This document shows, in pieces, positions 3,440 to 29,592 of a stretch of 51,438 bases of DNA. A model generated the notes under the pieces. It saw only the letters and a program-made list of their open reading frames with translations. It made no database searches and had not been told where the DNA came from. Position 1 is the first letter of the stretch, and every line of letters starts with the position of its first letter. Origin of the DNA: a phage. Both the position numbers and the translations under genes were made by a program. The stretch lies in the sequence record PZ754631.1; one strand, given 5' to 3'.

Positions 3440-4203
3440 TGAAAGTGAAAGGCGTTGTTAAACAATGGCGCTTTCCTGAAGCAAGCGAGCGGCAATTTAG
3501 CCGCTCAATTCAGGAGGCAATTAGAGATCTGGTGGTCATCATGCGCAAGCGAACAAAAGCGATGAAGTTTGACGCAACAGATAATGAGATCAACAGCGCA
3601 GAAGATGAAATTAACAACCTGGCAACTGACCTTATAGCTGGCATTGTTTCAACTCTTCCCGCAATCGCGTTGACAATTTATAAATTCAATGCGAAGCAGT
3701 TTATCAATGTTGCCAAGTCAACTGGCGGAAAGGATAATACGGCGGTAATTGTTTTGATCGCGGTTGGCGCTAACGCTAACGAGGACTGGTATCAGACGCT
3801 ATACGGTCAATGGCACGGGCTTACAGAATCATCGCTAAGGAAGTTATTCACAAACATTGTTTCTGATTGGTCAACAAACATTCGAAATGCAAACTTTCGC
3901 GGAAGCAATGATAAACAGGTTAACGATCTTGCAGAAAAGAGATTTGCTGTTTATAGCTCTTGGGGTAAAACGAGATCAGAAAACATTATCGGCGCGTGGA
4001 ATAGTCGCCTGATGCGCCAGCGCCTTTATGATGCTAAGGTGACTCATTATTTCTGGCATGGAATGTTAGATGATAGAGAGCGATTGCAGCATGTGTTATG
4101 GGAAGGTAAAAGAATAGCGCTTGATGCAATTCATGATTTCCCTGGTGAGCCGTGGGGTTGCCGTTGCTGGGCGATTCCAGATTGGAATAATAAAGGAGAG
4201 TAA
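3439..4203 (+). CDS. head morphogenesis protein (Mu F / SPP1 gp7-like)
   Basis: 254 aa following portal with overlapping start; C-terminal conserved PGEPWGCRC region typical of the family. Confidence 0.7.
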   Translation: MKVKGVVKQWRFPEASERQFSRSIQEAIRDLVVIMRKRTKAMKFDATDNEINSAEDEINNLATDLIAGIVSTLPAIALTIYKFNAKQFINVAKSTGGKDNTAVIVLIAVGANANEDWYQTLYGQWHGLTESSLRKLFTNIVSDWSTNIRNANFRGSNDKQVNDLAEKRFAVYSSWGKTRSENIIGAWNSRLMRQRLYDAKVTHYFWHGMLDDRERLQHVLWEGKRIALDAIHDFPGEPWGCRCWAIPDWNNKGE

Positions 4204-4206
4204 TTA

Positions 4207-5319
4207 ATGAAGGCAAAACAAAGATTTGATAGCGTCCAGGTTAAGGCGCATTTTGATGATAATGGCTTTTTAGTAGATCGCCCAATTGTGGCGCGAATTG
4301 GTTTGCAGGAGTACCGCACACCGTATGGAATCAGACGAGAGTTCCGACCAGCGTCAGAAGTGTTTAAGGCGGATTCGCTTGCTACGTTCGCAGGCAAGCC
4401 GATCACTATCGGTCACGTCACAGTGACGCCAGATAATGCGGATCAGGTTGTTGTTGGTTCATGCGCTGGTGCTGGTGTTCCAAATGGTGTTGGCGTTGAA
4501 GTTCCGTTAAGTATTTACTCAAAGCGAGCAATTGAGAGCGCAAAAAAGAAAGACACGGCGGAAATTTCAGTTGGTTACACATCAATTGATATTGATAAAC
4601 CAGGTTGGGGCAATAATAAAACTGGCGATTACTTGTTTGAGGAAGACATTAAGGAAGACTGGAAGCCTGACTCCCCTGATTGGGTTAAATTTGACGCCAT
4701 TCAGACGAATATCCGTGTTAATCACATTGCGCTCGTCTTTCGTGGTCGCGCTGGAATTGCCAAATTAAATCTTGATAGTGAACAGGATTTTCCGTATAGT
4801 GACGAGGTTCTAAATGACAAAGGAGATGAGGAAATGACAGTAAAAATTAAACTTGATGGCGCGGTAGAATTTGATGTTCCAAAGGCCGTTGCTGATCATA
4901 TTGAGGCGTTAAAGGCAGATGCAAAAGCTGCAACCGAAAAGGCTGATGGCCTTGAGGCCGAGCGCGACGCCCTGAAAACTAAAGTCGATGGCATTCCGAC
5001 GCAGATTGCAGAAGCTGTTAAGAAGGCAAAGACTGACGCAGAAGAACACGCCAAGCTAGTTGCAGATGCAACTGAAATTGGCATCAAGTGTGACGGCTTG
5101 GACGCTAAAGCGATCAAAGTTGCTTACGTCAAAGAAGTCACTGGCGCTGATATTTCAGAAAAAGCCGATGCATATATTGAAACAGCTTTTGACCTTGCGA
5201 AGCAGTCTGATAAAATGGCGGCGCAGCGTAAATCTGTTAAGGGCGATTCTTTCGAGTCTGGCAAGAGTGAAAAAACCGACTCCCTTGATCCGACTGCGCG
5301 TTTGAAAAAACTTAAATAA
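4207..5319 (+). CDS. head scaffolding protein (possible protease-scaffold fusion)
   Basis: 370 aa; C-terminal half is Ala/Lys/Glu/Asp-rich predicted coiled coil; located between morphogenesis gene and capsid. Confidence 0.55.
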   Translation: MKAKQRFDSVQVKAHFDDNGFLVDRPIVARIGLQEYRTPYGIRREFRPASEVFKADSLATFAGKPITIGHVTVTPDNADQVVVGSCAGAGVPNGVGVEVPLSIYSKRAIESAKKKDTAEISVGYTSIDIDKPGWGNNKTGDYLFEEDIKEDWKPDSPDWVKFDAIQTNIRVNHIALVFRGRAGIAKLNLDSEQDFPYSDEVLNDKGDEEMTVKIKLDGAVEFDVPKAVADHIEALKADAKAATEKADGLEAERDALKTKVDGIPTQIAEAVKKAKTDAEEHAKLVADATEIGIKCDGLDAKAIKVAYVKEVTGADISEKADAYIETAFDLAKQSDKMAAQRKSVKGDSFESGKSEKTDSLDPTARLKKLK

Positions 5320-5331
5320 GGAGAAATAAAC

Positions 5332-5844
5332 ATGGCTACAATTGGAGCAAGTTATTTTGCTGTAATGTCTCGTGCGTTACCTGGTCAGGTTTCTGACACT
5401 TCAGCTTATAATATTGATGGCGCTTGTGTTCTTGAGAATGCGGCAGGCAATCAGAATAAGTCTGTTTTTGTTGGTGTGGCGGTCCAGCATGGCGGCGTTG
5501 ATGCGATGGGTAATAAACTGATCAAGCCTATGGCGGCAAGCGGCAAGGCTTACGGCGTTGCAATTCGATCTCACTTTCAGACAACTTCGTCTGACGGTCG
5601 AATGATTTATGAATCTGGCGGCGGAATCAACGTAATGACTGAGGGGCGTGTTTGGATGTTGGCTAAAGACGCCACCGCGCCAGCGTTCGGCACTACAATC
5701 AAGCTGTCTGATGATGGTCAGGTTGATACAGGGTCTGGCACTATCGAAACAAACTGGATCGCAACTGGTGACTTTACCGAGTTTCAAGGCTTGAAGCTGG
5801 TAGAGGTTCAGGTGCAAAAAGTTCCGGCAGTTTCTGCTAGTTAA
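5332..5844 (+). CDS. head-associated structural protein, paralog 1 (decoration/cement-like)
   Basis: 170 aa; shares pattern GVAVQ..G.VWML..G..I.L..DG with the next gene; followed by intrinsic terminator. Confidence 0.5.
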   Translation: MATIGASYFAVMSRALPGQVSDTSAYNIDGACVLENAAGNQNKSVFVGVAVQHGGVDAMGNKLIKPMAASGKAYGVAIRSHFQTTSSDGRMIYESGGGINVMTEGRVWMLAKDATAPAFGTTIKLSDDGQVDTGSGTIETNWIATGDFTEFQGLKLVEVQVQKVPAVSAS

Positions 5845-5851
5845 TAAATAT

Positions 5852-5876
5852 GGCGCTCACTGAGCGCCTTTTTTAT
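5852..5876 (+). terminator. intrinsic terminator
   Basis: GGCGCTCA/TGAGCGCC stem plus TTTTTT. Confidence 0.6.
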
Positions 5877-5889
5877 ATTTGGAGTTATC

Positions 5890-6324
5890 ATGAGTGATTA
5901 TTCAGTCATTGTTGGCGCTGAGTCGCCAGGGTGCATGGTCGATTCTTCAATAATGGTGATTAACGGATCTTTCGTGTGCGGAGATGAATTTATTGCGCCA
6001 GGTAAGATTGTGCGACTATCACATATAACAAATGGATACAAAATAGCAAGTGTTAATGGGGATCTAGTTATTGGCGTGGCAGTAAGGCCGCCGGACTCGT
6101 GCATATATGAGGAGGGTGATACCGTTAATGTGGTTAGTAGAGGTAGTGTGTGGTGCTTAACTTCTGAGAGCGAAGCGCCAGAATATGGAGATAAAGTATT
6201 TGTAACTCAAGATGGAGATGCGGCATACAGTGAAGGAGACTTGCTGATTGGTTGGATCTTTACTGGCGAACATGTAAAGGTTGATCATGATTCATATATT
6301 GTCGGGGTAAGCATTAGCGCATAA
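5890..6324 (+). CDS. head-associated structural protein, paralog 2
   Basis: 144 aa; same motif order as 5332-5844 (IGVAVR..G.VWCL..G.KVFV.QDG); immediately upstream of major capsid gene. Confidence 0.5.
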   Translation: MSDYSVIVGAESPGCMVDSSIMVINGSFVCGDEFIAPGKIVRLSHITNGYKIASVNGDLVIGVAVRPPDSCIYEEGDTVNVVSRGSVWCLTSESEAPEYGDKVFVTQDGDAAYSEGDLLIGWIFTGEHVKVDHDSYIVGVSISA

Positions 6325-6407
6325 CACAAAATTATGTTGCACGTTTAACAAAAAATGCTATCATTGGGGCGTTACATACTAACGGCCTTTATATATGGAG
6401 GAAGAAA

Positions 6408-7382
6408 ATGGAAAAAGAAAAATTTGATCAGCTAGATGCGGATATTGTTTCTAGCTATCTAGCTACTCGCGGCGTTAAGGGTGATGCTTCTGATATGGGT
6501 ATCTGGACGGCGCAAGAGCTTCACAAGATCCGCTCAACTGCTTACGAGAAAGAGTATCCGGCAGGTTCGGCACTTCGTGTGTTCCCTGTAACTAATGAGC
6601 TTTCTGATACTGATAAAACTTTTGAATACCAGATGTTTGATAAAGTTGGTTACGCAAAAATTATTGCTGATTACACCGACGATCTGCCGACCGTTGACGC
6701 GCTGATGTCTAGCGAATTTGGTAAAGTGTTCCGCTTGGGTAACGCGTTCTTGATCTCCATTGACGAAATCAAGGCTGGTCAGCGTACTGGTAAGAGCCTT
6801 TCCACTCGCAAGGCAAACGCAGCGCAAAACGCTCATGATCAGGAAGTTAACCGCCTGGTGTTTAAGGGTTCAAAGCCGCATAAGATTCTTTCGGTGTTTG
6901 AACACCCTAACCTGACAAAGATCGTGTCAACTGGCTGGTTAAGTGCTGATGAAAACACTAAGTTCCCGCAGGCAGCATCTGATGAACTGGAAAAGGCTAT
7001 TGAAACCATTCAGACCATCACCAATGGTCAGCACCGAGCAACCAACATCCTGATTCCGCCGTCTATGCGCAAGGTTCTTTCCGTTCGAATGGAAAACACC
7101 ACTGAAAGTTATCTGGAATACTTCCAGAAACAAAACAGCGGAATCACCATTGACTCAATCGCAGAGCTTGAGGATATTGATGGCGCAGGAACGAAAGGTT
7201 GCCTGGTATATGAGAAAGACCCGATGAACATGTCGATCGAAATTCCAGAAGCATTTAACATGCTTCCTGCGCAACCAAAAGATCTGCATTTCAAAGTTCC
7301 GTGTACTTCAAAATGTACTGGCCTGACGATTTACCGTCCGTTTACGCTAGTGCTTATTACTGGCTTGAAAAAATCAGGTTAA
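6408..7382 (+). CDS. major capsid protein
   Basis: 324 aa; strong RBS GGAGG; flanked by intrinsic terminators (hallmark of highly expressed capsid gene); position in head module. Confidence 0.8.
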   Translation: MEKEKFDQLDADIVSSYLATRGVKGDASDMGIWTAQELHKIRSTAYEKEYPAGSALRVFPVTNELSDTDKTFEYQMFDKVGYAKIIADYTDDLPTVDALMSSEFGKVFRLGNAFLISIDEIKAGQRTGKSLSTRKANAAQNAHDQEVNRLVFKGSKPHKILSVFEHPNLTKIVSTGWLSADENTKFPQAASDELEKAIETIQTITNGQHRATNILIPPSMRKVLSVRMENTTESYLEYFQKQNSGITIDSIAELEDIDGAGTKGCLVYEKDPMNMSIEIPEAFNMLPAQPKDLHFKVPCTSKCTGLTIYRPFTLVLITGLKKSG

Positions 7383-7395
7383 TCGTATAACATTG

Positions 7396-7425
7396 GGGAA
7401 TCCTTAACTGGATTCCCTTTTTTAT
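7396..7425 (+). terminator. intrinsic terminator after major capsid gene
   Basis: GGGAATCC-loop-GGATTCCC stem plus TTTTTT. Confidence 0.65.
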
Positions 7426-7438
7426 TGGAGGTTATGAA

Positions 7439-7711
7439 ATGGCTAAAGAAAAAACTGTAACGCTAAAGGTTTCCGGCGTGTGCCTTATCATTGTTGATGG
7501 TGAGCATTATCATCCAGGCAAAGAGTTTGACGTAGAAGAATCAAAATTGAAAACAAGCGCGTTTGAATATCTAATTGCAAAAGGCGATCTGGAGGTTAAA
7601 GACAACTCCGCATTGAACGAAGAAATCAAACAGAGCGCAGCAAGCAAACGTAAAAAAGATCCGCGAGAGGGCAAGAGCAAAGCCGAACTTGAAGACGGCG
7701 GCATCTATTAA
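7439..7711 (+). CDS. hypothetical head-module protein
   Basis: 90 aa ORF with RBS GGAGG between two hairpin terminators. Confidence 0.5.
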
Positions 7712-7758
7712 TAAAGAGGGCGCTTATAGCGCCCTTTGTCATATCTGGAGGAAACACA

Positions 7759-8175
7759 ATGGTTGATGAATTTTTCACTGACGCAGAAATCACGCAGCAA
7801 ATCGTGAAATTAGCTCCACCGATGAAACAGATTGATCCAGATTTAATGGTGGCATGGATTGATCTGGCAAAGGAATTTGTTTGCAAGAAGCGGTTTAAAG
7901 AATCATATCCCAAAGCGGTTGCTCTTTATACGTTGCACCTTATGACGCTTGACGGAGCCATGAAGCAAGAGGGGGAAAGCGTAGAAAGTTACTCGCGGCG
8001 AGTTGCGTCATTTTCCCTGACTGGTGAATTTAGCCAGACATTTGATCGCGTGTCCGGCGATTCAAGCGGAAAAGAGATTAGACAAACTCCGTGGGGCAAA
8101 ATGTATGAGACGTTAAATAGAAAAAAAGGCGGTGGATTTGGCCTTGTGACTGGATTTCGGAGGCGCTGCAAATGA
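7759..8175 (+). CDS. head-tail connector/adaptor-like protein
   Basis: 138 aa; position between capsid and neck genes; RBS GGAGG. Confidence 0.45.
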
Positions 8176-29548: not shown

Positions 29549-29592
29549 AATAGCATTTTTTGTTAAACGATGATTTAATGATTGTGTATTAT
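29549..29592 (+). promoter_or_regulatory. early promoter cassette driving helicase operon
   Basis: AATAGCATTTTTTGTTAAAC, 18-bp spacer, TATTAT. Confidence 0.5.

Follow-up and report, generated by a model that had tools for sequence, protein, structure and literature searches.

What do two small genes contribute to a phage head when they sit side by side directly upstream of the major capsid protein (MCP) gene, and what determines how much of each product is made? The question is raised by a 51,438-nucleotide stretch of phage DNA (record PZ754631.1; this whole stretch is called the window below), in which two plus-strand open reading frames (ORFs), ORF1 (5332-5844, 170 aa) and ORF2 (5890-6324, 144 aa), precede the MCP gene. 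A preliminary description had taken them for tandem paralogous small head proteins of about 150 aa, separated by a terminator and a ribosome-binding site (RBS). It had further proposed that attenuation may set their stoichiometry, that such duplications are uncommon and that the two products could occupy distinct capsid sites. The two adjacent ORFs lie exactly where it placed them and are correctly described, the size being only approximate. Here, we find that ORF1 and ORF2 are full-length cement-protein paralogs. We consider it likely, if by no means certain, that they form a cement pair like that of phage T1, in which the ORF2 product would be confined to a minority of trimers and its level would be set by the terminator.

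Positions 4200-7800 of the window are 97.8% identical to Escherichia phage JakobBernoulli (Bas07) and 96-98% identical to pSf-1, grams, G29-2 and others. By its sequence, the source phage is a member of Hanrivervirus (Drexlerviridae, Tempevirinae) and a T1-like siphophage.

ORF1 and ORF2 are cement-protein paralogs

In a direct BLASTP comparison, ORF1 and ORF2 match with an E-value of 4e-12, at 34% identity over 59 aa in the C-terminal third. An alignment of eight sequences, including ORF1, ORF2, the corresponding T1 and PaulSarasin proteins and two database relatives, revealed 20 invariant collinear columns across the whole domain (including P17, G18, D22, I28, G30 and V33 and, further on, G105, V107, W108, P117, W142 and G146). 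Comparison by hhalign of a profile of 24 first-position proteins with one of 23 second-position proteins gave a probability of 99.9% and an E-value of 2.9e-33 over 151 columns. Both ORFs exceed the curated Pfam gathering threshold (27 bits, whole-protein score) of the same two families: ORF1 scores 91.7 bits for Phage_cement (PF22758) and 65.8 bits for XM1_gp53_minor_capsid (PF23982), and ORF2 scores 93.3 bits for PF23982 and 55.6 bits for PF22758. Both also belong to phrog_1989. Pairwise BLASTP, alignment, hhalign, Pfam and a Foldseek search with the ORF2 model (see below) all agree on the paralogy. Some tblastn matches of ORF2 came in two pieces, as if an insertion were present; they are ORF1 and ORF2 matches joined together.

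A phmmer search with ORF1 matched, over residues 1-162 (E 1.9e-44), a 158-aa chain of Protein Data Bank (PDB) entries 9kmg, 9kmh and 9kzj, which is named 'decoration protein / cement protein II' and is identical to phage T1 gp49. ORF1 and T1 gp49 are about 51-53% identical, and the N-terminal arm motif MA.I.ASY...MA.ALPG is kept in ORF1. By these comparisons ORF1 is the ortholog of T1 gp49, a cement (decoration) protein.

ORF2 has a predicted cement fold and no C-terminal Ig domain

ORF2 matches the same 158-aa gp49 chain (E 8e-11) and, at about E 1e-9, a 255-aa 'BIG2 domain-containing protein / decoration protein gp29'. The latter is T1 gp48, encoded directly 3' of gp49, the position that ORF2 holds as a minor cement paralog in our phage. 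The C-terminal immunoglobulin (Ig) domain, Big_2, gave no Pfam match in ORF2, which stops at the domain boundary.

The AlphaFold2 model of ORF2, built with 59 homologs, is all-beta, with a mean predicted local distance difference test score (pLDDT) of 88 and a predicted template modelling score (pTM) of 0.84. Its best Foldseek matches are the T1 and FCWL1 cement chains (9kzj_H/I, 9kmg/9kmh), with E-values of 2e-10 to 7e-9 and template modelling (TM) scores of 0.75-0.80. Next come Pam3 8hdt_G (E 3e-5) and XM1 7kmx_a (E 6e-5), followed by weaker matches to Borrelia BB1, HFTV1, phi29 gp8.5 and TW1 decoration proteins. Structure prediction, which had been named as a check, therefore yields an ORF2 fold that matches solved gp48/gp49-type chains. 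The N-terminal arm region of ORF2 is 4 residues shorter than that of ORF1, and the model shows this arm as disordered. Purifying selection acts on ORF2 much as on ORF1, with ratios of nonsynonymous to synonymous substitution (dN/dS) of 0.08-0.30 and 0.08-0.13, respectively, which marks ORF2 as a functional gene.

We also noticed that second-position proteins carry cysteines (C15, C30, C71 and C89 in ORF2) that are never found at those columns in first-position proteins. In the ORF2 subgroup, C15 and C30 occur together in 18/18 sequences and C89 in most, and C71 is confined to the closest clade. The invariant cysteine of first-position proteins is another one, C32, two residues off on the same strand. 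A disulfide or a metal site formed by the second-position cysteines is possible.

The tandem pair is conserved in related loci

We compared 25 related loci. Of these, 19 came from IMG/VR, located with ORF1 alone as the query (58-96% ORF1 identity); the others are T1, PaulSarasin, three close relatives and a metagenomic contig. In all 25, the protease gene is followed by cement 1, cement 2 and the MCP gene, in this order, and the reading frame of the second cement gene is intact in every locus. The tandem duplication is thus not uncommon inside Drexlerviridae, contrary to what had been supposed, and the families concerned are already in Pfam. Mean identity is 66% among first-position proteins, 42% among second-position proteins and 30% between the two classes, the second-position proteins evolving about twice as fast.

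Second-position proteins range from 143 to 269 aa in length. A Big_2 Ig domain is present on those of T1, PaulSarasin, L022 and P0023 and is doubled in P0026; none was detected in ORF2 or in the tested homologs L010, L011, L013 and L019, and the protein of L018 is similarly short. Among the closest relatives of ORF2 outside Hanrivervirus are P0022 (53% identity, Ig-less) and P0023 (49%, Ig-bearing). Since both states are found so close to ORF2, the Ig domain has come or gone repeatedly. Cement 1 is carried by about 841 phage records, and a T1-type Ig domain could be detected in about 141; an Ig-less second paralog seems to be the common state in Drexlerviridae.

One IMG/VR locus stands apart. 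In L024 (2507-3845; Shigella phage 2019SD1, flagged 'UNVERIFIED_ASMBLY'; protein P0001) the cement genes are scrambled: ORF1 is split or duplicated, and ORF2, at 176-202 aa, has its C-terminal half repeated internally. This is probably an assembly artefact rather than a real variant.

ORF2 lies between a terminator-like hairpin and a promoter-like site

The two ORFs are separated by a terminator and an RBS, as described at the outset. A terminator-like hairpin with a T-run, GGCGCTC-ACT-GAGCGCC plus T6 (5852-5874, plus strand), is followed by a short Shine-Dalgarno (SD) sequence, GGAG (5881-5884, plus strand), 5 nt before the ATG at 5890. The hairpin itself (5852-5868) has a 7-bp stem with 6 G-C pairs and a 3-nt loop, and the T6 run occupies 5869-5874. 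The free energy (dG) of the hairpin alone is -11.6, and the RNA of the whole 45-nt spacer folds at -14.8 kcal/mol (z = -3.75), none of 200 shuffled sequences folding as well. We read the spacers of 24 related loci, and a hairpin with a T-run after cement 1 is present in all of them (dG from -11.6 to -16.5 among the 23 for which it was measured). The stems are of at least five kinds (GGCGCTC/GAGCGCC, GGCACTC/GAGTGCC, GGCCGGA/TCCGGCC, AGGCACTCT/AGAGTGCCT and, in T1, GGGACTATCC/GGATAGTCC), and 5 of the 9 stem pairs in an alignment of 11 sequences show compensatory changes on both sides. The G29-2 and T1 records annotate this hairpin as a terminator. An Rfam scan of positions 4000-8000 gave a single match, a minus-strand 'Histone3 stem-loop' over the hairpin; at 20.6 bits (gathering score 34, E 0.03) it is below threshold and represents a chance match to a generic hairpin.

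A promoter scan found no promoter-like site from about 5216 to ORF2, including the inside of ORF1, and the ORF2 start follows the stem by only 21 nt. Because of this, ORF2 should be transcribed by read-through only. Downstream of ORF2, the sequence TTGCAC-16-TGcTATCAT (6337-6364, plus strand) is the sole full match to this pattern in the window and is nearly invariant in the 24 loci read, including T1; the T1 record places a predicted promoter and then a terminator at sites corresponding to 6337-6388. We read it as a putative sigma-70-like promoter with an extended -10 element.

Translation signals differ between the genes as well. The duplex of the SD site with the 3' end of 16S rRNA is predicted at -9.3 kcal/mol for both ORF1 (AAGGAG, 5318-5323, plus strand, read from the sequence) and the MCP gene, and at -5.9 kcal/mol for ORF2. 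The ORF1 site is kept in all loci compared. ORF2 also has the lowest third-position GC content (GC3, 35%) and the lowest codon-adaptation-like index (0.58, compared with 0.75 for ORF1) of the head genes.

A T1-like arrangement is the likely explanation

The T1 head has a T=7 shell of 415 MCP subunits, decorated by 80 homotrimers of gp49 and by 60 heterotrimers, each with one gp48 and two gp49, which amounts to 360 gp49 and 60 gp48 (PMC11945409). Both proteins have a beta-tulip fold; the N-terminus of gp49 is inserted under the shell, gp48 is attached to the surface only, and the outward-pointing Ig domain of gp48 has been proposed to aid adsorption (PMC11945409). The suggestion that the two paralogs occupy distinct capsid sites is supported by this cryo-electron microscopy (cryo-EM) of the homologous pair, and extends to the present phage by homology.

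The corners of a T=7 hexon comprise two penton-adjacent positions, three hexon-only quasi-three-fold positions and one strict three-fold position. A figure legend of the T1 paper describes a hexon ringed by four homotrimers and two heterotrimers (PMC11945409). As this four-plus-two pattern fits only the penton-adjacent class, we infer that the T1 heterotrimers are at the 60 penton-adjacent sites.

Transferred to our phage, ORF1 would be the abundant subunit, forming trimers on the three-fold and quasi-three-fold positions of a T=7 HK97-type shell, where they would clamp neighbouring capsomers. ORF2, faster-evolving and of the same predicted fold, would most likely replace one ORF1 subunit in a minority of trimers at the 60 penton-hexon-hexon sites next to the vertices, for a head with about 360 ORF1 : 60 ORF2 : 415 MCP. 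At the level of expression, ORF1 would be the last gene of a long head operon that ends at a strong intrinsic terminator, ORF2 would be transcribed by read-through alone, with a weaker RBS and poorer codon usage in this phage, and the conserved promoter would restore high MCP transcription. This predicted layout, with cement 1 high, cement 2 low and MCP high, would match the 360:60:415 of T1. We infer for this phage the co-trimerisation of ORF2 with ORF1, the vertex-proximal location and the terminator-set ratio.

Alternatives for the ratio and for the site

That attenuation sets the stoichiometry is plausible: the hairpin and T-run found at every locus read, the compensatory stems and the promoter-like restart before the MCP gene favour it, while site-specific binding alone could set the ratio. 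Proteins of the lambda gpD type need an expanded shell to bind to, where geometry defines their sites, and surplus protein stays unbound. If these cement proteins likewise bind only expanded shells at defined sites, leaving the excess unbound, capsid-site binding would set the particle ratio and the hairpin after ORF1 would be operon punctuation or a stabiliser of the mRNA 3' end, an alternative that we take seriously but think rather unlikely.

Several observations weigh against the T1-like model, and those on hairpins speak for this alternative. Terminator-like hairpins stand behind almost every gene of the block. Those after the MCP gene and the small gene behind it are similar, with T-runs, and in the late region of T1 most genes end in a hairpin, an organisation described as 'transcriptons' (PMC11447400). 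The hairpin after ORF1 may thus serve to punctuate the operon in a general way and need not be devoted to setting a ratio. Among relatives, the SD duplex of the second gene is predicted at anywhere from -5.4 to -10.6 kcal/mol, so the weakness of the ORF2 site is not conserved and a conserved weak RBS as a ratio device is ruled out. Our literature search found no Drexlerviridae transcriptome; in the genome papers on T1 and TLS, transcription is described only in terms of terminator-bounded 'transcriptons' (PMC11447400). Against the punctuation reading, in 24/24 loci the second cement gene has a conserved terminator before it and a conserved promoter-like site behind it, and no promoter-like site of its own was detected. 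The ORF2 transcript level must therefore depend on read-through, whether or not this is what sets the ratio.

The remaining counterpoints concern the capsid. ORF2 is only about 31% identical to the N-terminal domain of T1 gp48 and equally distant from gp49, and in a simple neighbour-joining (NJ) tree the main second-position clade leaves out T1 gp48 and L010. The tree is therefore no proof of a single ancient duplication, and one-to-one orthology of ORF2 and gp48 is not established, the correspondence appearing positional rather than clearly phylogenetic. In FCWL1, the gp48 homolog is present as 5 chains in the portal-vertex entry 9kmh and as none in the icosahedral entry 9kmg, so the copy number and location of gp48 homologs may differ from the T1 account. 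Our literature search returned no Hanrivervirus virion proteome. These points leave room for an ORF2 product that is in the virion but not in 2:1 heterotrimers, forming its own homotrimers (for example at the 20 strict three-folds, 60 copies) or sitting at the portal vertex only (about 5 copies). The FCWL1 deposits, the distance of ORF2 from T1 gp48, the missing Ig domain and the 42% identity of second-position proteins, compared with 66% in first position, would all fit such an arrangement. We nevertheless judge it improbable: the T1 model has one gp48 per icosahedral asymmetric unit, in heterotrimers (PMC11945409), and the core motifs common to both paralogs are compatible with mixed trimers.

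It is very improbable that ORF2 is decaying after the loss of the Ig domain or acts in assembly without being part of the mature virion: public labels such as 'hypothetical' or 'scaffolding protein', a GC3 and a codon-adaptation-like index below those of every other head gene and a phage TLS band assigned, in sodium dodecyl sulfate-polyacrylamide gel electrophoresis, to the first cement protein only would agree with it, but the frame is intact in all loci under a dN/dS of 0.08-0.30, the cement fold is confidently predicted, Ig-less second-position proteins are apparently the majority (about 141 Ig-bearing of about 841 records), and the T1 homolog is present in the virion (PMC11945409).

A broader reading we offer tentatively. 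The core of the second paralog would be a vertex-specific adaptor by which a three-fold clamp fits penton-hexon-hexon and also portal-hexon-hexon sites, the Ig domain an optional add-on repeatedly lost or gained, and the terminator-gene-promoter unit a hard-wired divider giving about 6:1:7 family-wide; C15 and C30, with or without C71 and C89, might add a redox or metal cross-link at the vertices.

The region before the MCP gene and MCP processing

A hairpin (6366-6388, plus strand) lies right behind the -10 element. Nearly all relatives have a hairpin at this position, with stem sequences that differ by compensation, and in four of the closest relatives it is degraded. The T-tail behind it ranges from 0 to 6 T in 8 positions, too variable for a canonical terminator in every phage. 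Co-variation of the stem across genera, with the T-tail often absent, suggests a 5' stabilising role: the hairpin is probably a protective stem-loop at the 5' end of the MCP mRNA and/or a weak terminator in some phages.

The MCP gene (6408-7382, plus strand) encodes an HK97-fold protein (Pfam Major_capside, E 2e-54; phrog_264) that is 76% identical to T1 gp47 and to which the cement trimers would bind. Its residues 27-33 (6486-6506) read ASDMGIW, which is also the N-terminus of the mature TLS capsid protein determined by Edman sequencing, and the T1 MCP model begins at residue 27 (PMC11945409). The prohead protease probably removes 26 residues from the MCP here.

The promoter-like site at 6337-6364 also contains one copy of an 18-nt repeat, TTTAACAAAAA[A/G]TGCTAT. 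With up to 3 mismatches, this repeat has 18 matches in the whole window (14 exact), compared with 1.6 expected. Sites are found on the plus strand at 6344, 10104, 20925, 38220, 38896, 40308, 40814 and 41952, and on the minus strand at 29550, 32074, 33115, 43359, 43822, 44359, 45363, 46695 and 49342. In the early and middle regions the repeat lies in tiny intergenic gaps and reads ATAGCAC..TTGTTAAA along the local ORFs, where it often provides the upstream TAG stop and adjoins the next ATG. Four late-region or same-strand copies, including the pre-MCP one, are inverted. The repeat corresponds to the '21-nt direct repeat aaATAGCACnnnTTGnTAAAA' of TLS, for which roles as a stoperator, an enhancer or an UP element have been proposed (PMC11447400). 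The two orientation classes seem to be previously undescribed.

Neighbouring genes and database labels

The cement pair is preceded directly by the prohead protease gene (4207-5319; DUF2213, phrog_530), and the portal and MuF-like genes lie 5' of the protease gene. A strong terminator (7395-7418, plus strand) follows the MCP gene, and behind it a 90-aa ORF (7439-7711; Pfam DUF7444, phrog_2716) is flanked by terminator-like hairpins at 7395-7418 and 7717-7735. The DUF7444 gene is found behind the MCP gene in every locus long enough, including T1 (orf46), and its product is absent from the set of head proteins built into the T1 structure (PMC11945409). It is not a detached Ig domain of ORF2, as T1 has both this gene and an Ig-bearing gp48. 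Two minus-strand ORFs (5401-5817 and 5898-6104) have no PHROG match and are mechanical.

Records of close relatives call ORF1 either 'hypothetical' or 'capsid decoration protein'; for ORF2 the label is nearly always 'hypothetical'. In several GenBank records, homologs of ORF2 are named 'scaffolding protein', 'scaffolding protein SbcC-like' or 'major capsid protein', and one gene of the block is labelled 'putative zonula occludens toxin' in many; these appear to be propagated misannotations. In addition, 19 'Campylobacter phage' records (host C. jejuni; for example MG065665 'Campylobacter phage A131', MG065640 and MG065649) contain Hanrivervirus-like sequence, with ORF2 identities of 93-95% in two of the three listed and lower in the third. 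This looks like mislabelling or coliphage contamination of the preparations.

The main value of the analysis is one of annotation: ORF2 can now be named as an Ig-less minor cement-protein paralog. The adhesion-display role that the T1 paper gives to the gp48-type protein cannot be general, because Ig-less paralogs appear common; a structural role of the second paralog at special capsid sites is more likely. A terminator and a promoter, both conserved, on either side of one low-copy structural gene also make a natural test case for the relation of transcription to capsid stoichiometry. The cement clamps may underlie the exceptional particle stability for which T1-like phages are known.

Comparison with known cement and decoration systems

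Pseudomonas phage E217 gp24 and cyanophage Pam3 gp6 (PF22758) and the Vibrio phage XM1 protein (PF23982) belong to the same families as both ORFs. These phages are myoviruses with, to our knowledge, one cement gene each, whereas our siphophage has two tandem paralogs.

More distantly, lambda gpD, TW1 gp56 and the base of phi29 gp8.5 are likewise trimeric beta-tulip clamps on three-fold sites of HK97-type shells, and the T1 paper likens gp48 and gp49 to beta-tulip decoration proteins of the lambda gpD type (PMC11945409). The ORF2 model, however, is only a weak fold match to them (TW1 5wk1_K, E 0.096, TM 0.61; phi29 gp8.5, E about 7e-3); Foldseek gave no match between this model and lambda gpD, and no sequence similarity to beta-tulip decoration proteins was found. 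The herpesvirus triplex (Tri1:Tri2 = 1:2), a comparison drawn in the T1 paper (PMC11945409), also combines one minor and two major subunits at local three-folds, but it is no add-on clamp, being essential to the assembly of the shell, and the likeness is one of analogy, with no homology claimed.

The closest parallel is the cement pair of T1 (PDB 9KZJ) and FCWL1 (9KMG/9KMH). T1 gp48 differs from ORF2 in carrying a Big_2 Ig domain of about 100 aa, and heterotrimers and copy number were seen in T1, while for our phage we have the genes and a predicted fold. With the T1 pair solved by cryo-EM (2025), the arrangement is already known, and the idea of a duplicated cement protein is right rather than new. 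What the phages share is the gene order protease, cement 1, cement 2, MCP, with the terminator between the two cement genes and the promoter and hairpin before the MCP gene, together with an N-terminal arm that the first paralog has and the second lacks.

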